Shown here piece after piece: positions 26,285 to 63,463 of a stretch of DNA of 64,000 nucleotides. Under the pieces are notes generated by a model that was given only the letters and a program-made list of their open reading frames with translations, was not told where the DNA came from and made no database searches. The stretch comes from Octopus sinensis (taxonomy: Eukaryota): the NCBI RefSeq assembly GCF_006345805.1, contig NC_042998.1, forward strand, positions 118,978,001-119,042,000, written 5' to 3'. The position numbers and the translations under genes are program-made. The number at the start of each line of letters is the position of its first letter. Position 1 is the stretch's first letter.

Positions 26285-29200
26285 AAATGTCCTGATTAAT
26301 GATACATCTAGTAATACACTGAGTGTAATAAAAAAACAAAATATTGTGACAATAAAAAAACAAAATATTGTGAATAACGGTGGTAATGAAACTGAAGCCA
26401 TTAATGGTGACAGGGTTGCACCCGGCAGCCTCATAATTTCTGGTCCGGTTCCAGCGTGTCGATATCCAGAAAGAGACCACTACACACGGTGTAGATAGAG
26501 CAGGCAAATTAATGCTGTGGTCATGGAGTGTTACTACCTGAGCAACCCGGTAGATTAAAATGGTGCTCAAATAAGGGGAACAGGGATAGTTTCAACTCTC
26601 AGAACAGAGACTATGTTATTAAACTAGAACAATAAGAAAAAATTGTTGGTTCACAGAAGTAGAGTTCCAAACTATCAAAAGACGGTTCTTGGAAAATAGC
26701 AGCAGAGATAACAATAAAAATAGATTCGTGCTGCATCTCTATAAAAATAAAGTTCTTACTAATAGAAGTAATCACATAGCACAGAAAAGGAGCAGTAGTA
26801 GTTTACATGATGCGAGACATATAGATGATATAAAAGAAGACAATAAAACTATTGCCGAAATGACAGATGAACGAAAGGCAATCTACGACAGAATAAAGGA
26901 GGTACCAGAGGAGAACGATAACGACATCATTTGCAACCTAAAAACGTTCATCGGTGAAAATTGAACCAAGAAACGAACGATGTCAATGAAATTCTGAAAT
27001 ACATCAGAACAAACAACATTACAGAAATAAATAATTTGATCAAGGCAGCAAGTATTGTTGTAGCAGAAAACGTGGGTGTTGATGTGAAGAAAAAGAAATA
27101 TAATGGGCATGACAAAAGAAAAGATCCATGGTGGAAAAGAAGAATACAAGCAGGGTTATTTTATGATCTCAAAAGAAATTTCTGTGTTAGACCGAAAGCA
27201 GAAAGAGGAGCTTAAAAGCGAACAAAAATACAGGCTCTGAAAAGAAAGTATAATATTGAAAGAATGGGATGCAAGTGATAATGGAGGAACTGAAACAGCG
27301 CCTCGTTGCAAAGAAAGCAAAAATGGTAAGATGCAACCAAAGAATGAAAGGTTATCACCAGATTAGGTTATTTAGAGTAGATCAGAAGAGATTATATACA
27401 GAAATAAATTGAGAGTGTACAGATGAATAGTTGATACCAGATAACATTGAAAGTCAAAGGTTTTGAAGTGACATCTGTAGCAAAGTCAAGTAACACAAGA
27501 AGGATGCTGAATGGTTGCAAGAACTGAAACAAATAGTAGTCTGACCCAGACATTTCAGTAAGGAAATTGGAGGAAATCAGCAAAGAAATGAGCAACTGGA
27601 AGGCCCTGGGATCAGATGGAGTAGAACGCTACTGAATCAAATCATTTGGTGAATGTCATGCACAAATAGCTGCGCAACTCAACACCTTGCTAAATACCTA
27701 TTTCTTTACTAGCCACAAGGGGCTAAACACAGAGAGGACAGACAATGAGATTAATTCGATTACATCGACCCCAGTGCGTAACTGGTACTTAATTTATCGA
27801 CCCCGAAAGGATGAAAGGCAAAGTCGACCTCGGCGGAATTTGAACTCAGAACGTAACGGCAGACGAAATACGGCTACGCATTTCGTCCGGCGTGCTAACG
27901 TCCGGCGTGCTAACGTTTCCGCCTTGTTAAATACCGACCAAGTAACACCAGCGTGGTTGACGTTGGGTAGGACAGTGCTGTGCTTGAAAAGCATCGAAAA
28001 AGGCAATACGGTAGACAATTACATGCCGATATCCTGTTTGCCACTTATGTGGGTGTTAATGACTGGAATAATCGCAAAATCAATGTACGAACATCTGGAA
28101 AAAAATGGAGTCCTGCCACATGAGCAGAAGGTTTGCAAGCGTAAGTGCAGAGGTACCAAGGATCAACTCCTAATAGATAAAACTGTACTTGGAGACTGCA
28201 AGAGGAAGAAAAGTAACGTAGCCATGTCATGGATCGACTATCGTAAAGCGTTCGATATGATCCCACATTCTTGGATTATGGAGTGTAAGAACTCACTTGG
28301 TATTGCATCGAATGTTGAGCGATTGCTTGAAAAATGTATTGCAAATTGGAGGACGGACCTGACAGCATACGGAAGAAGTTTAGGGATAGGAGAAATTAGG
28401 AGGGGCATCGTCCAAGGGGACTGCCTGTCCCCACTGATCTTTGTACTGTACTTGATACTACTAACACTGATTCTGAGGAAAGCAAAAGCCGCTAACAAAA
28501 AGTCAACCATTTTTTATTCATGGATGGCCTCAAACTTCATGGTAAAGATGAAGCCGAAGTCGAAATTAAATGGACGGAATAAGATTGAAGCTATCAACAC
28601 CTGGGTGATTTCACTTCTTAGATATGGAGCAGGGTTAATCGCATGGGCATTAGACGAAATAACAGCTTAGACAGAAAGACAAGGAAGTTGCTAACTAGAT
28701 ATGGGTCACTCCACCCAAAAAGGGACACAGACAGACTGTATGTTCCAAGAAAAAGAGGGGGAAGAGGACTTATTGGATGTTAACATAGCATTGGAGCAAA
28801 AAAGAAACAACATAACATGTAACAAAAATGCCATCGAACCGCTATTATTAGAAGTAAGAAGGAAAGGCCTGTGTAGGATGAAAGATTGCAAAGTAAAAGC
28901 ACTGTACAAGCAATTAAAAATGTATGAAACTGAAAAAGGTGGGTAAAGAAAAGAATGCATGGACAATTTCATCGGGATGTTGAATATAAGACAGAGAAAA
29001 AAGATGGCTGTGGATGACTAAATGTGATTTAAAACTGGAAACGGAGGCTCTAATCCGCGCTGCCCAAGAGCAAACACGAACAAACTACATAAAATACAGA
29101 ATAGACAACACATCAGAAAGGATAAGTGCAGAATCTGTGGACGAAATGCTGAAACCGTATGGCATATTACCAGCCAATGTACGCCACTAGCTCTGAAGGA

Positions 29201-29728
29201 ATATAAGAGACGCCACGACAACATAGCAAGACTTGTGCATTGGACCCTTTGCTATAGGTATGGACTTGACAGAGCAAAAAATTGGCACGACCACAAACCC
29301 GAATCCATCATCGAAAATGATAATGCAAAGATCCTGTGGTATTTTATGATTCAGTGCAACCATAAGATAGAGAATAGGAAGCCAGACATAGTCTTAATTG
29401 AGAAAGAGACCAAACTATGCGGAATCATAGATATAACATGCCCAGCTGACAACATGGTGTGCGATAAGGAAGAAAGAAAAGTTGAGAGATATGACAGGTT
29501 AGCTTGGGATGTTAAGCAGATGTGGTCGATGAAAAAGATGGTACCAATAATCGTCGGAACCCTTGGAACAGCGAGCAAAAATCTCGAGAAGTACGGGTAA
29601 CAAATAGAGACTGCAATAAGGTTGGGGCACTTGCAAAAAAACAGCAATGCTTGGAACCGCTCGAATACTCCGGTAGGTGCTCGATAAATAAGAGGTGTAA
29701 CCTTAGTTCACCGGTAGTGAACAGCTGA
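26285..29728 (+). mobile_element. R4/Dong-clade RLE non-LTR retrotransposon, near full length, decayed
   Basis: N-terminal VMECYYLSNP; [51 protein letters not shown]; CCHC CRICGRNAETVWHITSQC, RRHDN; RLE KPDIV..IIDITCP..K. Multiple stops and an internal deletion near 28558. Confidence 0.93.
27699..27921 (-). mobile_element. tRNA-derived SINE family A inserted in the R4/Dong element, with TSD
   Basis: Reverse complement has B-box-like gagttcaaattcc and ttcatcctttcggggtcgataaattaagtaccag; flanked by ccttgctaaatacc (27685-27698) and ccttgttaaatacc (27922-27935). Confidence 0.9.
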
Positions 29729-31811
29729 CACATTTTCTCAATTTCAATGAGTAGGTCCTTATATTTTCTGAGCTTGTCAAACTCTTTCGCTGAGATATTA
29801 TGATCACAGGGGATGCTCATGTCGATCAATAAGCAAACTTTATTGTTTTGGTCTTTCACAACAATATCTGGTTTATTGGCCTTGATGGTTCGGTCTGTAT
29901 GTACTGGAAAGTCCCACAGAATGGTTACATTTTCTCCTTCAGTTACAACCTCAGGGTGGTGATTATACCACTTGTCGGCAGTTTTGATATTGTAATGCCG
30001 ACTTATTAGCCAGTGGAGATATTGGCCAACTCTGTCATGTCTTAATTTATACTCCACTGGTGCTAAGACTTTACATCCAGAGATTAGGTGGTCCACTTTT
30101 CAATCATGTCGTTGCAGAATCGGCATTTTGGGTCTGCTCCATTTTTCATTACATTGGCCTGGTAGTTCCGGGTTAATAGGCTTTGGTCTTGAGCAGCCAG
30201 GATGAAACCTTCGCTCTCTGCTTTTAGCCCTGAGCTCCGCAGCCACTGATGGGTTTGCTTCTGGTCAACATCAGCTTGTTTGCTGCGGGTCACATATTTG
30301 CCGTGCAGAGGTTTCTCCTCCCACCTATCAGCCAATTGCTCGTGCGCTTTTTTCATTGCCATCATTTTCACCTTCTTTGCAACAATAGTTGCCGTACTTC
30401 CCTCGGATTGTTCAGTTTGGGTATCCTGCACGAGATCAATAGCAAATTTTTTGCTTTCCTTGATGATAGAATGAAGCTTCTTTCGTCTCTCGTGATTTTC
30501 CACGAGCTTTAGCATCCAGTCATTCGATATTTCGAGATATTGGCCAGTCCAATTGTGGTTGTTTTGTAAGCTAGTTCAAATTGGATCAGGCCTCGACCTC
30601 CTTGGGCTCTGGGAAGGTAAAGGCGATCTACGTCTGCCTTTGGGTGGTGCATCCTATTACAACTCAGCAGCTTGCGTATATTTCTATCTATATTCTTTAC
30701 TTCACTCATATTCCAGTTCAACACATTGTAGCTATAAGTAACAACTGGAACTGCTAAGGAATTTATAGCTAACACCTTGTTACGTGCATTTAGTTCAGAT
30801 TTCAGGACTGCACGAACTCTCCTATAACATTCCTTCCTGATTTTCTCTTTCATGCTTGCATGCTGAATACCAGAGCCTTCATTTATCCCTAAATATTTGT
30901 ATGTCTGTTCTTGCTCAAGCTCTCTTATGACTGTGTCAACATCTAACACTTCTGGAAAGTGGCCTTGGCACACTTCTCAAGTCCAAACTCCATCCCGATG
31001 TCATCGCTGAATGCTTTCACGGTGCGCAATAGGCCTTCAAGTTCATTATTGTCTTTACCATAAAGTTTTGAGTCATCCATATAAAATAGATGGCTTATTT
31101 TTTTATTGGCAATTTTATACCCATACCCTGTTCTGTTTAATTCACTTGTAAGGGGTATTAGGGCTATGCAGAATATTAAAGGTGAAAGTGAGTCACCTTG
31201 AAAAATTCCACAGTTGATGTTTATATTTTCTGAGGCAAGTACTCCATTAGAGTGGTATAATTGGAGATTCGTATTCCACAACGACATATTGTGCTTCAGG
31301 AAGTTTGAAATCACAGGGGAAATTTTAAAGATGTCCAGCGATCTCAAGATCCATGGATGCGGTATACTGTCGAAGGCCTTTTTATAGTCAATCCATGCGG
31401 TGCTGAGATTTCTGCGCTTGTTGTGACAGTTCTCAAGGATCATACGATTGATTAGCAGTTGATCTTTGCATCCGTAAGAGCCTCAGCGGCACCCTTTTTG
31501 TTCAATGGGGAAAATATCGTTCTTCTCTATGAATGCATATGTTTTCTCCGCCAGGATAGATATTAGGATTTTATACGTGGTGGATAGACAGGTTATAGGC
31601 CGATAGTTTTTTGGAAGGTTGGTTTCGTTATTCTTTGGGAGTAGGTAAGTAATGCCACTTGCTAACCATTGAGGTGTTTTCTTTGGGTCTCTCAAAATTC
31701 CATTGAGCAGCTGAACTAGCTTGCCGTGTGCGCACGGGAGCGATGCGAGCCAGAAATTCGGCACCCTATCTTTACCGGGGGATTTCCAATTATGGGCCTT
31801 CGTGAGTGCCT
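29729..31811 (-). mobile_element. Second R4/Dong-clade element, 5'- and 3'-truncated
   Basis: Minus ORFs: NWKSPGKD, NYRPITCL, WIDYKKAFDSIPH, GIFQGDSLSPL, FYMDD, RLYLPRAQGGRGL, AAQDQSL, CRFC, LRHD, KPDIVV..IDMSIP. Confidence 0.95.
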
Positions 31812-31813
31812 TA

Positions 31814-31815
31814 TA

Positions 31816-31872
<57 letters not shown>

Positions 31873-31932
31873 ACGATCACAACAGCAACAACAATAAGAA
31901 GAAGAACAATAATAATAATAATAATAATTAAT

Positions 31933-32005
<73 letters not shown>
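31814..32005. repeat. (TTA)n array followed by oppositely oriented (TAA)n array
   Basis: Direct sequence; strand switch around 31872-31905. Confidence 0.95.
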
Positions 32006-32006
<1 letters not shown>

Positions 32007-32374
32007 TAATACCGCATGGACCTGTGACAGCCAGGTGCCGAGAAGCAGGAATTAAATAGTAAAAACAATGAAAGAAAGTTGTCTTAATATAAGCCATCTC
32101 AGCAAACTGAAAGATTTTTCTGATACATATACACAAAAAATAGCTTCCCCCGATGCACTGCCACAGCAACATGTGCGTAAAAATGTAAACATTTGGATAG
32201 CAATATTTTATACGCAAACTGCAAATCTGTGAGTAAAATTTTAATTTAAAAATTTTAAATATTAATTACATATACATTCACATTTATACAAGACATTTAT
32301 ATATGTGCACATTGCTGTTTCTTCTCGGTCTCTCGCTGGTACATCAATAATAATGATAACTACGAGAGAAACAT

Positions 32375-39936: not shown

Positions 39937-40006
39937 GATAAAATTTTCGAAAAGATTTTATCAGTGGCCAGCATATTAAAAAATACTTTTTAAGGTTAAA
40001 TTTATA

Positions 40007-40336
40007 AACAACTTATAAACAAGGGCAAAAGAAAAAAAATTCCAGTGCCTAATATGCCGGAAATAGACCTAAATCATCAATAACCACATATAATTCATCA
40101 TTATAAGCACGCGTCCCAAAGCAAGCCGACAGAAATCGGACCGATTCGGTAATAACGGAATTTTTTAGAAATTTCTGTCGGGTAATAAACGGAATTTTTT
40201 TCAGAAATTTCAGTCGGCTTACTTCGGTACGCGTGCTAATAGTGATGAATTATATGTAGTTATTGAAGATTTAAGTCTATTTTCGGCATATTTGGCACTG
40301 GAAAGTTTTTTCTTTTGCACTTGTTTATAAGTTGTT
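40007..40336. repeat. ~130-bp inverted repeat (foldback) with tandem-duplicated spacer
   Basis: 40007-40136 aligns by eye to the reverse complement of 40207-40336 with scattered mismatches. Confidence 0.9.
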
Positions 40337-40337
40337 G

Positions 40338-40374
<37 letters not shown>

Positions 40375-40459
40375 ATATAATATATATATATAATATATAT
40401 ATATATATACGTATGTGTGTGTGTGTAGAAGTTAGAAAGGTAACACACGAGTTGATGTT

Positions 40460-42459
40460 TATAAAGAAAAAAGACAGGGTAGAAAATGCTAAAATAGTTT
40501 TATCATGAAGTACATTTTAGTACTGGTTTCCGTCGTTTAGACGTTTTCAACTAAAAGTAAAGTAAGGAAAACAATTAAATTGGAGAAACAAAAATAAGTG
40601 AAATGTTTTGTAAATATTTCCAGTCTTCATAAAGGTAAATATTTCCAAAGTCTTCAGATAGTCTGGCTCTCTCTCTCTCTCTTCTTTTGTGAATGCATGG
40701 TAGATAGTAGTAAGTTTGAAGAGAAAGTTTATGAGTAAGAATTGATGGTTTTAGCCGGAGTCACCGAGAAGAAGAAGAAGAAGAAGAAGAAGAAGAAGAA
40801 GAAGAAAAGAAGTGGAGGAGGAGGAAGAAGGAGGAGGGGGTGGAGGAGGAGGGGGAGGAGGAGGAAAAGTAGGAGTAGGGAAAGAGGAAGAAGGAGAAAG
40901 AAAATAAAAATAAAAATACAGAAGTGCTGTGACGCAGAAGATCGTTCGTGGAATCTTCTTTATTCGTCAAATGACCTAAAAGTGACATTTGTGGCCGTAG
41001 CAGTAGTGGTTGGAATTGTTCTAAATTCTTGTAGTAGTTTCATCCGTGGAGGCATTCAAATTAGGTTTATATTTTGCGATAAAAATACTTCCTTGCTAAT
41101 GCGCTGTTTATAGGATGCATTGAATTTATAGAGGGGAAAAATTCTAAAGTTGGGTTGTTCGGTAGTGGCGCAAATATCCATGTGCTCGCTTAATTCTATT
41201 TTTCTGTATTCTCGTATTTTAATTTGTGATCTATGTACCGTCATTCTCTGGTGTAGACTGTTTTTAGTTTGACCAATATATTGTTCTCGACATCCTGGGC
41301 AAGTTAATACATATATTAAGTTTTTCGAAGCACATGTGAAATTGTTTTTCACTGTAAAACTTACACTCTGAAGGAGAATTCTGATCCCTGAATTAGGTTG
41401 ACACATATACCACAGTTAGGTCTTGCGCATTTTTTGCAATCGTTTTCAATGTTGTAGACAAGTATACTTGGACCTGTGTTAGCAGACTTTCATTGACTTG
41501 GGCTGTCTTGTGCTCTTTATGATGGTGTGCGTCTGGAGGATTTGATCCATTTTGTGGTTTCTTTTTATTAAAAGGATGTTCTGGAGGATGGTGTCAAAGG
41601 CGCCATTGTTTAGGTGGTTGTGCGTGCATATGCATGGCAGGCCTTTTGGTTGTAAATCCTTCTTTAGTTTGGGGTGTCTGAGTTCGTGAATATTGAGTTG
41701 TAGGGTACTTTGAAAGCCTATATCATTTAGTGGTAGTGGGTAGTTTCTGCTGATGAGTGTATATTTTAGCTTATGCAGTCATGTATCAGATACTTGTGCT
41801 TGTATCAGATGCGTTAATACAAATCCTTTTTGCCAGGTTGTAAGGGATATTCATTCTAATGGGATGGCATGAGTTGAATGGCAGATATTGCTTGGAGTCC
41901 GTGGGCATGTAATATATGTCTGTTTCTATTTTGTTGTTCGATTTCTTAATGAGGATGTTGAGGAATGGAAGTTGTTGGTGGCTATATTCCATCATAAATT
42001 GAGTATTTATATCACATCCATTCAGAAGTGCTTGAAATTCTTGAAGTCTCTCTATACTTTCGTTCCAAAGAATGAAACAGTCATCTAGATATCTTTTCTA
42101 GTTATTTTCTATGAACAGGGAGTATTGGTTTCCGTATTTTTCTAGTACCCTGCATTAAAGACAGATTTCTAGGTACCCTATGACTAGGTTAGCAAAGGAG
42201 GTAGCCATTGGAATTCGCAATTGCAGTCCCCGATACCTGTCGATAGAAGTTGTCATTGAATATGAAGAAGTTATTTTACAAGATGAATCTTAGTCCTTCT
42301 ATTACGAATTCTTTTTTCATGCGGTGTAGGACTTTATTCGAGTAATTATCTAGCCAAAATTGAATTGCCTCTATAAACTGCTTCTGCTTAAACCACCATT
42401 TCTCTGTACTCATAAACTACCCCTTCAAATTTACTACTACCTACCTACCAAGCGTTCAG

Positions 42460-42496
<37 letters not shown>

Positions 42497-42685
42497 ACTT
42501 CAAGACTTGGCAATATTTACTTATTTGAAGACTATGGAATATTTACAAAACATTACATTTATTTTTTTTCTCCAATTTTATTGTTTTTCTTATTTTACTT
42601 GTAAAAGTCTAAACGACGGAACCGGTACAAAAAGGTACTTCATGATAAAATGCTTTTAGCATTTTCTACTTTGTCTCTTTTTCTT
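40460..42685 (-). mobile_element. Penelope-like element (RT + GIY-YIG), 5'-truncated, with inverted terminal repeat copies
   Basis: FYRQVSGT, KRYLDD, LPFL.ILI..ETDIYYMPTDSKQYLPFNSCHP, and NLIYVLTCPGCREQYIGQT..RMTVH. 40460-40665 is the reverse complement of 42492-42685. Confidence 0.93.
40515..40556 (-). ncRNA. Minimal hammerhead ribozyme, U3:A8 variant, in Penelope pLTR
   Basis: Reverse complement TTTTAG-TTGAAAA-CGTC(taaac)GACG-GAAA-CCAG-T-A-CTAAAA; the decayed inverted copy near 42595-42633 retains ACCGGT. Confidence 0.78.
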
Positions 42686-42709
42686 ATATACATATATATA
42701 TACAAGATA

Positions 42710-48149: not shown

Positions 48150-51100
48150 TCTTGTCTCTGTCTCACTTTTCCCCTTCTATTCTCACTTCCCCTCTGTTCT
48201 CTCTCACCCCGCTGATCTGCCTTACTCTTTCTCTCTCTGTCTTACCATTCTCCCCTTCTGACACCCTCCTTATCTCTTTCTCCGTCCCTCAGACCCTCTA
48301 TTTTGCTCTTTCATCTCTCTCTCTTTCTCTCTCTCTACCACCCTCTGCTGAACTTCCACTTGCTTTCTTTCTCTGCGTCTCTCCCCACCCTGCTTTCTTT
48401 CAGGTCAATTTCCTAGCATCTCACCCTCTCTCTGTCTCTCTACTTCATTCTTTCTCTCTTGTACCTCTACCTCGCCCTCTCTCATTTTCTCTCTCCCTCT
48501 CTCTGCTTCTCTTCTTTCTCTGCCTCTCTTCTCTCCGCTCCCCTTATCTCTCTTTTCCTCTCTCTCTCCCTTTACTTCTTTCTCTTTACCACACCTCTAT
48601 CCCTCTTTCTCCCTCTCTCCCTCTGCTGATCTGCCACTCTTTCTCTCTCCTCTCGCTTCTCAGGTCGATCCCCTTATCTCTCTCTCCCCAGCTGATCTGC
48701 CACCCCCTTTCTCCCCTTCAGCATTTCTCTTCTCTTCTCTCCTCTCCCACTCAGGTCAATCTCCTTATCTTTCCTCCTCTCCCTGTTCCTTTATTTCACA
48801 CCCTCACTGTATCCCAACCAAAGATGACACGGAACTGGTCCGCAAAAGAATTGCAATTGTTTGTCCGCGCCTGGAAGATTGCTGAAGATGACTCCCCAAA
48901 CAACATCATTGCAGCGGCACTTAAAAGTAATGATTTCTCCAGAACCACCACCCAGATAGAGCGGAAGAAACGCGAATTTCTCCGTTCATATGCTTTAATT
49001 AGACAATATCTCGACATACTTGACATCATCTTGGGAGTGACTGCACCAGGGATGACAAAAAGGATGGAGAAAACATCCAGGACGCAACAGTCCCTCAGAA
49101 GAGCAAAACCAAAGACACAACAGAGAGACCTGCAACCAAGGGAAACAATGGATCTTGTCCAGCCCCCAACACGCCTGAAGACCAAAGAAGTGTGATGGCC
49201 GAAAAAGTAAAGCACCTTAAAACCAAGAGAACAAAAGCTGCTGAAGGCAATGAAAAGCAAGAGGTAAAAGAAAAAAAGGAAAGAACACAACAAAAACTGT
49301 TCAGAAAAAACAGAAGAGCAAGAGTTACAGGAGTTTCAAGGGCAAAAGCAGGAGCATCTGCAAATTTTACTTGCAAGGAAACCGCTGGCATGGCGACGAT
49401 GGTGCAAACTGTCCTTTTGCACACCAGGAGACCTGCCAAAACCGCATGGCCCCAATACAACAATCCCAGGAGGAGGCCAAAAAGAAAAAGAAAATGAAAA
49501 ATACCAAAGAAGGAAAATGGCGCACTGACTACTCCCGAAAGACAATATGCAGATGTAGTGCGCGGTCCAAAAAGGATACTGCATGGCCCAACAAATGCCA
49601 GCTTCACCCAGATGGGAGAAGAGCAGCAGCTGAACAGCAATCTTTTTTTTGCATTGTGCAAAAAATTGTCCAGCAGCTGACTTGGCTACAAAGACAAAGC
49701 TGGAACTATACCTACAAAACATAAGGCCACCACCAACAGGTGCAGGATAGCCACCACAAACACCAACTCACTCGCCACAAAAATATTTCTACTGAACGTA
49801 GGAGGACTGTTGCGCAGCAACTGTAAAAGGAAAATATCATTCTTGAATGACATTGCGGCATGCAATCAATCTCTATGCATGGTACTCATAGAAACGCATA
49901 TTGGACCTGATATAGGGGATGCAGAAATAAACATACCGCAATATGTTGTCATACGCTCAGATAGAAAAGAGAGGAGACATGGTGGAGTTGCAGTGTACAT
50001 CCGAGATGACCTCACGCCCCAGGTCCTGTTGTCATATTCAAACTCAGTGTGTGACACTCAAATTGTACGAATAAGATAACTGAATATCGTCATATGTACT
50101 ACATATCGTCCACCAGATGCCCCAAATCGCACAGGCATGTTTGAAGACTGCCTAACAAAAATAGAAGTTCTCGCCAAACTGGAACAACACAACAGTGTAT
50201 TCTTCATGGGTGACTTTAACTTCCCCAATGTGGAATGGTCTGGGCGGCAGATGCTCCCATGGATGACATACCATCAGCAAGGACGGGTAGAGCCCCTTCT
50301 TCACCTTACAAATACCTCTTTCATGGAGAAAATTGTGCTGCAACCAGCCAGAGCAAATAATATACTGGATCTCTGCTTCACAAATAATATGGACATTATC
50401 CATAATGTTAAAGTGATGCCGACATTGGTCTCGGATTACAACCTAATAGAGCTGTCTATGTATGGACCAAACGCCCCCGCAGACGTACAGCCTATACGAA
50501 GCATCCACAATCTCTCCAAAACTAAACTTTCATAAACCAAGTTGGAAGTTGATTGAGAAAGAGATACTCAAACAGGATTGGCCTAAATGTCTTTTCGCGC
50601 CAGACATTGACATGAAACACAAACGTTTCATGTCCATAATACAAGCCATATGTGACAAATATGTCCCAGTGTGCAGGACCAGCACACACAAAAACAGTTT
50701 CCCTAGGGAAAGGAAGATTCTTATTAGACGACGGACAAGGATTGCGAACCGCCTGAGCAAGTACACCAAAAGTGGTGAGAATTCTCGCCTCGTGAGAATG
50801 CTAATGGAAATTTAGAAAGGTCTGCATCAGTCTCATGAAAAGGAGAGAGCAGATAAAGAAGCTTGGGTTATAGAAAATATCAAGTCAAACTATAAAGCCT
50901 TCTTTAAGTTTGCCAAAGAGACGGCCACAGTGCGCCAGAGGATAGGACCTCTCTTCCAAAAAGTTGGTTCCCTCACAGGAAAACTCATGAGGATAAGTGA
51001 AATACTGAACGAACAGTTCCAAAGTGTATTCACTACACCTCTAGGACACAGGCAAGTAAACAAACCAGAAGAATTCTTTGCCACTTTACCTGTAGCGAAA

Positions 51101-52154
51101 TAGGCAAAATTTGAGTACATCAACATTGAAGATGATGATATCACACTGGCCATAGACGAGATTGACACAAACTCAGCTGCTGGACCTGATGGATTTCCAG
51201 CGATCCTTCTCAAATCGTGCAAACGAGCCCTTGAAAAACCGCTACAGCTTCTTTTTCAGAGCTTTCTTACAAGTGGTAAGCACCCAGGCAAATTGAACGA
51301 AGGGATAATATGCCCTATCCATAAGGGAGGAAGTAGAGCAGATGCTAAAAATTATAGGCATATCTCTCTGACCTCAAACATCACCAAAGTCATGGAACGA
51401 ATAGTCCACAAGAAACTAATCAAGTTCCTTGAAGAAAATGACTTGCTGACTAACCCACCAGCATGGATTTCGACCAGGTAGAAGCTGTCGAACACAACTC
51501 CTGCAACACTCTGACTGGATGTGAAAACAGCTACTAAATGGCTCAAGTGTAGATGTGATATATCTCGACTTTGCAAAAGCCTTTGATAAAGTCGACCATG
51601 GTATGATCTCTCACAAACAGCGTGATCTCGGCATTGGCGGAAAACTTGGAGAGTGGCTGCACAACTTCCTAAAAGATAGAAGGCTGGCAGTGGTGACCAA
51701 TGGAGCCACCTCCAAGGAAACACAAATAACAAGTGGTGTTCCAAAGGGCACTGTCTTGGGGCCACTGCTGTTCATAGTGGCCCTTTCAGACGTACCCTCA
51801 GTTGCTAAGATGGCCACCGTTGTTAGCTATGCAGATGACACAACAGTCTCTCAGACACTACAAAACCTTGGAAATATTGTACATCTGCAACGGGAGTTGG
51901 ATATAATATACTGGTGGGCTGAGGACAACAACATGAAGTTTAATGCAGGGAAGTTCCAAGCCCTACACTACTGGAAAATGAACATACCTCTCGGCAGGAA
52001 ACACAGATTCGGGCAGCGGCGTCACACTCCCTTGTTGACCAAGTGCCAAGTATCAGAGGTGGTTTCACATACTAGAGTAGCTCATCCGACGGTGGTGCCC
52101 CAGCATGGCCGCAGCTTTCGGCCTGAAACACATTTTTAAAGATTTAAAGATTTT
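48150..52154 (+). mobile_element. CR1-group LINE (ORF1 + APE-RT ORF2), both ends present, internal deletion
   Basis: Pyrimidine-rich leader; APE motifs LLNVGGL, LIETH, HGGVAVYI, TYRPP, MGDFNFP, NILDLCF; RT AAGPDG, NYRHISLTS, YLDFAKAFDKVDH, GVPKGTVLGPLLF, YADD; tail ending in tttaaaga repeats. Confidence 0.92.
48824..49724 (+). pseudogene. LINE ORF1: Myb/SANT-like domain, Lys/Glu-rich linker, CCCH-type finger (frameshifted)
   Basis: MTRNWSAKELQLFVRAW..IAAALKSNDFSRTTTQIERKKREFLRSY; ICKFYLQGNRWHGDDGANCPFAH. Confidence 0.7.
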
Positions 52155-53899: not shown

Positions 53900-53934
53900 G
53901 TTTCTGACGAAGAGCTCCGCTCGAAACGTTAAAC
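53900..53934 (+). ncRNA. Minimal hammerhead ribozyme in short non-coding element (~53835-54048)
   Basis: GTTT-CTGACGA-A-GAGC(tcc)GCTC-GAAA-CG-T-T-AAAC; palindromic ACGT. Confidence 0.8.
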
Positions 53935-54059
53935 CCTCATTATTTCCTTCTTTCCTGAGCGTCCAATAATACTATACTTGTTCCACGTCCTCGCGTTGTT
54001 GTGTTTTTTCTTTGTGTTTTTTCTTTGTGTTTCATGTTTGGATTAACCATATATATATG

Positions 54060-56735: not shown

Positions 56736-56781
56736 GACACCTGATGAAGGCTGGAGGGTATATCATCCGAAACGTTGTGTT
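56736..56781 (+). ncRNA. Minimal hammerhead ribozyme
   Basis: GACAC-CTGATGA-A-GGCTG(gagggtatat)CATCC-GAAA-CG-T-T-GTGTT; one stem II mismatch. Confidence 0.72.
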
Positions 56782-60214: not shown

Positions 60215-60298
60215 GTCGGTGGATCAAATATCTGAAAAAAACACACTCTAAAAGTTAGAGCAGTAATGTATTTACAAGGAATTAAATATGTCTGGTCG

Positions 60299-60362
60299 TA
60301 AAGTGATCAATGGTTTCGCTTCCATAAAGCGCTAAACTTTATAGACGACTCATCGGACTTTA
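60299..60362 (-). ncRNA. Hammerhead ribozyme (CCGAUGA variant) in inverted pLTR
   Basis: Reverse complement TAAAGT-CCGATGA-GTCGTCTATAAAG..CTTTATGGAAGC-GAAA-CCATTGA-T-C-ACTTTA. Confidence 0.75.
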
Positions 60363-61291
60363 ATTCGTGAGGATATATAATCTCCCTTCAAACTGGAGCT
60401 AGAAAACCGTTACAGTCAGTTAATTTGTAAACAAAACAACAATATACACTGCTTGAGCTCTAAACGGGGCAAGTTTGATGGAGGAGGCAGCAGCGGCAGA
60501 ACCACCAGCAACGACTGCGGCACCGGTATCAGCGATACGGCTGAAAATGACGACCACGCCAGCACCAGCAGTACCAGCGTAGCTACCAATCCCACACCCA
60601 GAATTAACAGCGACGGCAGGCACATCATCGGCATAGCAGCAACAACACTACGCCAGACCCATGCGCTGTAATAACAGCACTGATGACAGCTCCAACAACA
60701 GCAGCGCGACAACTCCATGCCCCAACCCAACAAAAGATACACAAGAAGCGTGAACACAACCAGCGCTCAAGTTCGGAGTGATATCTGGTCGGGCAGAACT
60801 GCCTTTAAGCGGCGCCTGTACAACCACAGTTCCTCATTTAGGGTTCTGGAAAGACGTTAAGTCACGCTTCTGTCCTGCTACGTGTGCCGCCTTAAGGATG
60901 TAGGAACTCCATACGAAATTAAATGGAGGATCATAGAGCAGACAGGGTTCTATATAAATGGGAGCAGACGATGCAAGCTTGTATAGCAGAGCAGGCAAGG
61001 ATCCTTAAAGACTTGCTGGACCGTGATCTCTCTTCAACTCAAGGCACGTGATGCATTATCCCTGCCCCTACTAACACAACCCGCTGCAGGCGTGGAATTC
61101 TCCGTTCGTACTTGCAGACCGGAACTAGCCTAAGGACAGAGATTCTTTGTACGCCCTTTAGGTCCGAACTAAGAGAGATAACTCGTCCCGTTTAAGGCTC
61201 AAACTGTATATCATTATTTTGTTTACAAATTAACTGACCTTAAGGGTTTTTCTACCTTCAGTTAGAAGAGAGATTACATGCCCTCAGCCAT

Positions 61292-61355
61292 TAGAATTTG
61301 ACGAGTCGTCTCTAAAGCTCAGCGCTTTATGGCTGCGAAACCATTGGTCATTCTA
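61292..61355 (+). ncRNA. Hammerhead ribozyme in 3' pLTR
   Basis: TAGAAT-TTGACGA-GTCGTCTCTAAAGC..GCTTTATGGCTGC-GAAA-CCATTGG-T-C-ATTCTA; GUC site, C3 changed to U. Confidence 0.75.
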
Positions 61356-61494
61356 TGACCGGACATGTATTTAACTTCATCTAATTAATATACATGTATC
61401 TCACTTCCCGAGCGTTAAACTATTACATCTGTTTGTTGTATAGACACCATACAATTAGATGAACTGAGGTAGAATTAAGAGGAATTAAATTAGG

Positions 61495-62313
61495 GAAACC
61501 ATTGCACCGGCAGATTTCCAAGATATAACCCCCCATCCCCATCCCCAGATCATCACAGATCCTCTTCTATGTTTAACAGTTGGAAGAAGACAGTCTGGGA
61601 CAAATGCTTCTTTTGTCTGTCTCCACACATATACTCGGCCGCTAGTCGGAAATAAGATAAAGGATGACTCGTCCGAGAAAATAACATTCTTCCACTGCTC
61701 TAGGGACCAATTCTATAGGTTTTTACTCAACTCTAAACGCTTTGCAACGTTTGTTTTTGAAAGTAGTGGTTTTCTGATTGCAGCCCTCCCGTGAAATCCG
61801 GGTTTGTGCAGCTCCCGGCGAAGAGCTTTTGGGGATACTGGGTTCTCGAGATGGTCATTAAGCTCTGCAGTAATTTGGGGATCTGTACTTTTGTGATACT
61901 TTCTAACAATTCGCGTAAGAGTCCGACGGTCCCTATCAGAAAATTTTGGTTTTCTTCCGGAGTTTTGTTTCGACGAAGATGTTTTTCCCCTCTTTCTCAA
62001 AGGCTGTCATTACTTTCGAGACAGTACTGCTTGATACACCAAACGGCTGTTTTCGTTACGCTAGCGCCTGCCATTTGACCTTTTTGAAAGCAATTTGACT
62101 TCTTTGAAAGTCCGATAGATCTCTCATTTTAATGAATTTTAATTACCTTTTTCTGATGATATCTGAAAAGAAACAGAACTTTTAGCAAAACATATTAAGC
62201 AACGCTAATAATAAATCAAAAAAGCATAAAAGCAAACAAGCTTTTGATGGTTTCATAGATACTTTAAAATTATAATGCTATGATGCTAGGTGTTTCCATT
62301 ATTTTGTCCAACC
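61495..62313 (-). mobile_element. Tc1-family transposon 5' portion
   Basis: SGRKPKFSDRDRRTL..RKPLLSKTNVAKRL..QWKNVIFSDESSF..PTVKH..SVMIWG; TIR-like ggttggacaaaataatggaaacacct. Confidence 0.92.
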
Positions 62314-62909: not shown

Positions 62910-63030
62910 TTCTCTCTAAGAACATAGGTTCGAAACGTCATAAACTGTTCCATTCTTCCTGAGCGTAACACTAATACACCTGCTTGTTGTTCCCTCACCT
63001 GGCTTCGTCTTTTGTTTTCTATAAATTTGA
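62910..63030 (+). mobile_element. Decayed relative of the 53835-54048 hammerhead element
   Basis: GAAC(atag)GTTC-GAAACGTC followed by ttcctgagcgt..taatac..cttgtt, as in the 53960-53985 region; CUGA core lost. Confidence 0.55.
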
Positions 63031-63150: not shown

Positions 63151-63381
63151 CTCGTTCGTTATCAAGGCAATCAAAAATGCTATGAAAGTGACCGTTTCTG
63201 AAGGAAAATTACTATGTTATTAAGATAAAAGAGCTACTATAATAACCCCTTCGATTTTTTCCCCTTGTTTAACGGTCATTCTAGTAGCTCTTTTGTCTTA
63301 ATAACGGTCAACTACGTAGTAATTTCCCTTTGTTTAACGGTCATTTTCATAGCATTTTTTATTGCCTTGATAACTAACGAG
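63151..63381. mobile_element. MITE/foldback element
   Basis: ctcgttcgttatcaaggcaatcaaaaatgctatgaaagtgaccgtt / aacggtcattttcatagcattttttattgccttgataactaacgag; inner arms also pair. Confidence 0.88.
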
Positions 63382-63463
63382 ATGCTGGAGCAATTTTCCA
63401 CCCCGACATCCGAAACTCGGAGTTTTATAATGGCAACCGAATAATTGTCACATTATATTACAG

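Follow-up and report, generated by a model that had tools for sequence, protein, structure and literature searches.

An inverted, 5'-truncated copy that abuts the 5' end of the element is a routine structure in Penelope-like elements, which may also have a tail of 30–40 nt on one side only (PMC8557442). For the formation of these inverted repeats, the accessible text of the reports offers a proposal of self-priming from junction palindromes, with a single template (PMC3846280), and an in vitro description of priming on both strands, the purified Poseidon element of Anolis carolinensis, for which a dimer is predicted, being able to cleave and extend both strands (PMC11167929). Moreover, the Anolis enzyme starts at an RNA site with no homology to the DNA that it cuts (PMC11167929). 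The hammerhead motifs of Penelope-like elements form many covarying families per genome, and they include pairs on opposite strands, 100–700 bp apart, and a U3-A8 variant of the core (PMC4209133). In octopus, an expansion of Penelope-like elements has been reported at a distance of 0.2 from consensus (PMC13282606), and thus a divergence of 20% between two repeats of one insertion would be unremarkable.

The locus described here lies in a 64-kb stretch of Octopus sinensis DNA (hereafter, the window) and occupies positions 60243-61448. It is a decayed Penelope-like retrotransposon insertion of the known head-to-head shape and of ordinary anatomy, and it carries one suggestive clue to how the inversion forms, namely two hammerhead stems that differ between the inverted arms and are nevertheless fully paired in both.

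Anatomy and family of the insertion

The element is bounded by a left pseudo-LTR, inverted and 5'-truncated (60243..60475, minus strand), and a right, 3' pseudo-LTR in sense orientation (61180..61415, plus strand), each delimited by alignment to the other. These repeats were taken from a BLAST self-comparison, the whole-window repeat finder being dominated by microsatellites, and they share 78% identity over 210 columns (60269-60475 versus 61387-61180). In a global alignment, 41 of the 205 ungapped columns differ, with 27 transitions and 14 transversions, a divergence of about 20%. The proximal part, up to 60289, accounts for 36 differences in 185 columns and two gaps, and the left segment 60288-60243 is still homologous to the right arm (14 of 46 columns differ, with three gaps; 4 of 3000 shuffles), the left tail alone being non-significant in the local alignment test (p 0.135) and scored weakly by a profile of three other tails (0.17). 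A test for clustering of the differences along the arms, which would have hinted at selection or conversion, was negative (p 0.22–0.58). BLAST, nhmmer and a covariance model retrieved no third copy of this pseudo-LTR in the window and, besides the two arms, returned only a short shared tail at 62947-62990.

The two arms are joined head to head. At 60475/60476 the left arm adjoins, by its 5' end, the 5' end of the body, so that two 5' truncations meet there without clear homology between the joined ends, and both 3' ends face outward, that of the left arm pointing leftwards with a (TG)n tract about 30 nt away. No palindrome is present at this junction or at the corresponding junction of a second locus, near 42385/42386. 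In L1 twin priming, two primers at one site likewise produce an inversion joined at 5' ends, a single RNA being copied with its upstream piece inverted. The inverted piece at the Octopus locus, in contrast, repeats the 3' end, so that the insertion has two 3' ends.

The truncated body begins with a segment of low complexity in translation (60476..60737, plus strand), which likely represents the linker that precedes the endonuclease, and continues into a broken endonuclease of Penelope-like type (60738..61020, plus strand), identified by its relatives and by a profile score of 78 bits. With E values of up to 0.001, 296 relatives of this fragment were retrieved, the best with 52–54% identity, while word-based protein searches returned no close ones. 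It is interrupted by a stop (60858) and, near 60978, by a frameshift, and the YIG motif is not recognisable in frame. Pfam assigned no family to the fragment and, among seven of its relatives, gave GIY-YIG for one, below the cutoff. The longer relatives have, ahead of the matching C-terminal domain, a region that we take to be reverse transcriptase-like on account of an RDDG motif, and the copy in the window is truncated downstream of the reverse transcriptase. The nearest two relatives (P0052 and P0053) likewise contain segments of low complexity upstream of the endonuclease; several relatives have a Cys-rich linker, and the window copy has scattered cysteines only. The endonuclease leads into the repeat and is not followed by a reverse transcriptase, which argues against Naiad, and the reverse transcriptase-like region and Cys-rich linker of the relatives tentatively point to the Neptune type as defined in the accessible text of PMC8557442, a clade marked by a Cys-rich, Zn-finger-like linker upstream of a C-terminal GIY-YIG domain.

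On the right side only, the element extends by a further 33 nt (61416..61448, plus strand), a segment recognised by tail comparison. It has no significant match to the left arm (911 of 3000 shuffles were as good), and 23 of its 33 positions agree with the tail that another repeat has at 62967-62999, a score reached in 0 of 3000 shuffles. Being present on one side only, it matches the one-sided tail of Penelope-like insertions. With its endonuclease type, inverted pseudo-LTRs, hammerhead motif and one-sided tail, the insertion is an EN+ Penelope-like element. It shares with the elements of PMC8557442 and PMC3846280 the head-to-head arms, the 5' truncation and the tail of 30–40 nt, together with the C-terminal endonuclease, the hammerhead within the repeat and a nearby microsatellite. 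However, neither a target-site duplication, a feature that varies within the family, nor a junction palindrome was found at the Octopus locus, and the accessible text of those two reports holds no description of arms with differing compensated stems.

An 11-bp direct repeat (60277-60287/61480-61490; 6 of 1000 shuffles) was considered as a target-site duplication and rejected, since left-arm homology continues past it to about 60243 and the repeat falls within the arm. In this continuation 12 of 17 positions match, a level reached at 9 of 127,968 positions for a motif chosen after the fact. No other exact direct repeat longer than 7 bp was found in the regions searched around the element. With no convincing target-site duplication, the case for a single insertion event comes from geometry only.

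Outside the element lies a neighbouring Tc1/mariner transposase fragment (61491..62127, minus strand) that ends at residue 208 of 343. The remainder of this Tc1 was found nowhere in the window, including the left of the element, and an insertion of the element into the Tc1 was rejected because of its absence there. In the 40-nt stretch that separates the tail from the truncated Tc1, two 11-bp segments match the arms: one is an inverted copy from the right arm (61376-61386/61453-61463), and the other, in the right-hand copy of the repeat mentioned above, is a direct copy from the left arm. These copies are possibly templated filler at a deletion junction.

Hammerhead motifs and their compensated stems

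Each arm contains a 64-nt type I hammerhead motif, at 60362 to 60299 on the minus strand in the left arm and at 61292-61355 on the plus strand in the right arm, and the two align without gaps at 13 differences. The spacing and helices of the type I core (CUGANGA, GAAA and UH) are present, with one core substitution per copy: U4 is replaced by C at 60355 on the left, where a helix III pair is also broken at 60307, and C3 is replaced by U at 61298 on the right, against G8. The predicted cleavage sites follow 60305 and 61349, respectively. Since each carries a core substitution, both hammerheads are probably impaired in these copies. Moreover, the hammerhead is not more conserved than its flanks, with 13 differences in 64 positions as compared with 28 in 141 elsewhere in the arms (p 1.0).

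Stem I reads TAAAGT/ACTTTA in the left arm (60362-60357 with 60304-60299, minus strand) and TAGAAT/ATTCTA in the right arm (61292-61297 with 61350-61355, plus strand), and all six pairs are Watson-Crick in both, which bears out the two double substitutions with preserved pairing that had been described in the earlier note. Pair 3 is A-U on the left (60360/60301) and G-C on the right (61294/61353), and pair 5 is G-C on the left (60358/60303) and A-U on the right (61296/61351). The predicted pairing probabilities of the six pairs are 0.63–0.97 on the left and 0.24–0.98 on the right. That note had also taken the fold to be real and selected, a view that is supported for the parent lineages, being expected from the covariation-rich families and the paired motifs on opposite strands reported in PMC4209133, and that is not supported for these copies with their substituted cores.

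Rfam reported no hammerhead in 60220-61500, where it gave two weak unrelated matches, and none among the 150 matches listed of 182 in the whole window, so that the hammerhead call relies on a custom descriptor. In its first form, the descriptor matched three places in the window, including only the right motif of this pair; with helix III relaxed, it matched five loci including both arms, and none in each of five block-shuffled windows. As in the metazoan type I hammerheads of PMC4209133, helix I has 6 bp, a G10.1-C11.1 pair is present and helix III is short and near-palindromic. The motifs differ from those in that helix II is long, interrupted and capped by a 6-bp hairpin, in that they lie 930 bp apart and in that both cores carry a substitution. 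In Poseidon, the ATG that starts the ORF lies within the hammerhead (PMC11167929), and the Octopus locus also has an ATG there, within helix II of both motifs (61329 on the plus strand on the right, with a matching ATG on the left). Unlike in Poseidon, there is no evident coding constraint after this ATG, where two codon differences are synonymous, several are replacements and one stop occurs; none of the fetched relatives begins with the peptide read from it.

To what extent ageing alone could yield such stems was gauged by simulating identical arms that decay independently to the observed divergence. At least two compensated stem I pairs were obtained in 267 of 200,000 simulations, and in 44 of 200,000 when all pairs were also intact, for a locus chosen from many because it shows the pattern. 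A comparable compensated 6-bp helix anywhere in the arm appeared in 2 of 1,500 simulations, and the analytic chance figure over about 20 pairs is 0.013. The pattern is thus unlikely under independent neutral decay, as the earlier note had held. G-U ancestors resolved in opposite directions were considered and set aside as less likely than plain chance. A column-shuffle control (126 of 500 shuffles as high) is uninformative for an alignment of two rows, and RNAalifold gave six double-changed pairs among 45 on these rows, a number that it optimises, so that only the two stem I pairs are counted.

Age alone would require a decay of roughly 0.10–0.11 per arm, and the estimates from the body and the hammerhead amount to about half of this. 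Conserved endonuclease sites give 0.045 (2 of 20 changed; interval 0.01–0.135), or 0.095 (5 of 25 sites) with a 60% conservation cut-off, and constrained hammerhead sites, with the four compensated changes set aside, give 0.04–0.06 (4–6 of 106; interval 0.02–0.12 at six breaks). Both estimates lean low, the former by hit selection and the latter by assuming the model, and their intervals include 0.10, with which age alone is compatible.

Other inverted pairs and repeats of the window

A second, different Penelope-like insertion consists of a 3' pseudo-LTR (40455..40755, minus strand), a broken body of reverse transcriptase and GIY-YIG endonuclease that is 5'-truncated within the reverse transcriptase region (40900..42385, minus strand; Pfam GIY-YIG, E 3.3e-05), and an inverted arm that adjoins the 5' end of the body (42386..42693, plus strand), with the same abutment of 5' ends near 42385/42386. 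The body has stops and frame changes, and its reverse transcriptase, which we presume from a YLDD motif, has no Pfam match. The arms, delimited by their alignment, differ in 40 of 288 columns, and the transition excess of the main pair relative to them is not significant (p 0.12). At 40556-40518 on the minus strand, a motif missed by the descriptor was recognised by eye as likely a minimal hammerhead with the U3-A8 core, while the hammerhead of the 42386-42693 arm is broken: its stem I has mismatches that nothing compensates, its core is altered and bases have been lost. Among the perfect 6-bp helices of this inverted pair, none has so much as a single compensated base pair. The pair had been cited, as 40460/42492, as fitting the same picture as the main locus; it is a real inverted pair, but it looks like an aged ordinary insertion under plain decay and lends that picture no support.

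A third inverted pair (55379-55584/56939-57117) differs in 24 of 179 columns, surrounds unrelated repeats and yielded no compensated helix. Hammerhead-like motifs of other families occur on the plus strand at 53900-53934 and 56737-56780, both with intact cores and no helix III, and at 1432-1482 and 63370-63428. A GAGCGT-centred motif follows the hammerhead region at 61396-61448, 62947-62999 and 53943-53980 (14–16 of 23 positions identical) in three repeats that carry different hammerheads, which suggests a putative conserved tail or initiation element across families. Long imperfect palindromes at 39997-40346 and 63151-63381, the second running into the hammerhead-like motif at 63370, are possibly MITE-like. 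Finally, 27636-32265 and 49681-52139 contain broken ORFs that we take to resemble reverse transcriptase and endonuclease regions of non-LTR retrotransposons, and two of them converge near 29000-30000.

Origin of the differing arms

That the two arms had different parents is the likelier reading, and we consider it probable. Guessed inputs, namely priors of 1–20% for mixed pairs and likelihoods of 2–10%, place the posterior of this reading anywhere between 0.13 and 0.95, and the even divergence along the arms and the second and third inverted pairs, with no compensation, speak against it. The explanation that we favour, with somewhat less than even confidence, is a single insertion event in which copies of two related RNAs, whose stem I already differed by compensated changes, were joined head to head and subsequently decayed. 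Both DNA strands would be nicked by the endonuclease, each 3' end would prime reverse transcription on its own RNA, and the two truncated cDNAs would be joined at their 5' ends, the enzyme presumably being common to sister subfamilies. Selection on the hammerhead fold would have acted in the active parent lineages, before insertion, and a later decay of roughly 4–6% per arm would have damaged both cores. An event of this kind, using two RNAs, needs neither a pre-existing repeat nor a homology search, and the direct abutment of 5' ends at both loci is as expected of one event. Poseidon supplies the mechanism, with both strands cut and extended and with internal start sites that make the tail, although it belongs to another clade by linker type and an insertion from two templates is not shown in the accessible text of that report (PMC11167929).

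The arms could instead have been identical at first, copied from one template by fold-back, self-priming or use of the same RNA, each then drifting by about 10%. The even divergence of the arms and a body decay compatible with 0.10 agree with this account, as does the second pair with its appearance of plain decay, and chance would produce the pattern in about one of every 1,000 of the many old loci in a genome. The compensated pairs might also derive from a template switch during replication that copied a 3-nt tract between the stem strands; they lie one pair apart, so that one switch could fix both, and such switches have been proposed to make multi-base compensations (PMC8794818). However, the clean pattern was rare in the simulations, a 6-bp stem closing a 52-nt interior would be a weak substrate for switching, and the junction lacks the palindrome on which the self-priming model of PMC3846280 draws. 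A single template with age is regarded as rather unlikely. A donor locus that already held two diverged repeats, whether as a mixed tandem or as an older composite, could have been copied through one long transcript. Penelope-like elements are transcribed from tandem arrays (PMC11167929), and a mixed donor would explain the compensation and the single-event geometry equally well, but the origin of the mixed pair would only be pushed back one step, and we regard such a donor as improbable.

Two successive insertions, the second at or onto an older inverted related repeat by homology or by endonuclease preference, would also bring together arms from different parents, as these probably are. For the Anolis enzyme, nicking of AT-rich DNA has been proposed, whether within the element's own pseudo-LTR or at other places (PMC11167929), and nesting of one family in another in opposite orientation has been reported in a rotifer (PMC3846280). 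Priming on an older repeat would, however, place a 3' end within that repeat, to which the two 3' ends, outward-facing and both outside the other arm, are a poor fit; neither arm interrupts the other, two 5' truncations without clear homology meet at 60475/60476, and the second locus shows the same abutment, a routine one according to PMC8557442. The homology-guided targeting of an older inverted pseudo-LTR put forward in the earlier note is thus not borne out, and two insertions appear quite improbable. If ectopic gene conversion had later replaced one arm, wholly or in part, by a sister-subfamily copy, a locus made in a single event would have acquired mixed arms, and the segment 60288-60243 is indeed somewhat more diverged than the proximal part, but no tract boundary is detectable in the clustering tests and we regard conversion as very improbable.

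Mixed-subfamily inverted arms or two-template insertion in Penelope-like elements were not found described in open-access text. One-template models predict identical arms and the two-template model allows mixed ones, a distinction that a single old locus cannot make. Compensated hammerhead stems remain usable as a marker after decay, and genome-wide counts of mixed pairs would separate the models. More generally, and more tentatively than for this locus, head-to-head insertions may reflect two enzyme-RNA units that prime both strands of one break, with RNAs possibly from different subfamilies. If true, mixed inverted pairs, legible through their hammerhead stem variants, would preserve, across the genome, a fossil record of integration from two templates.
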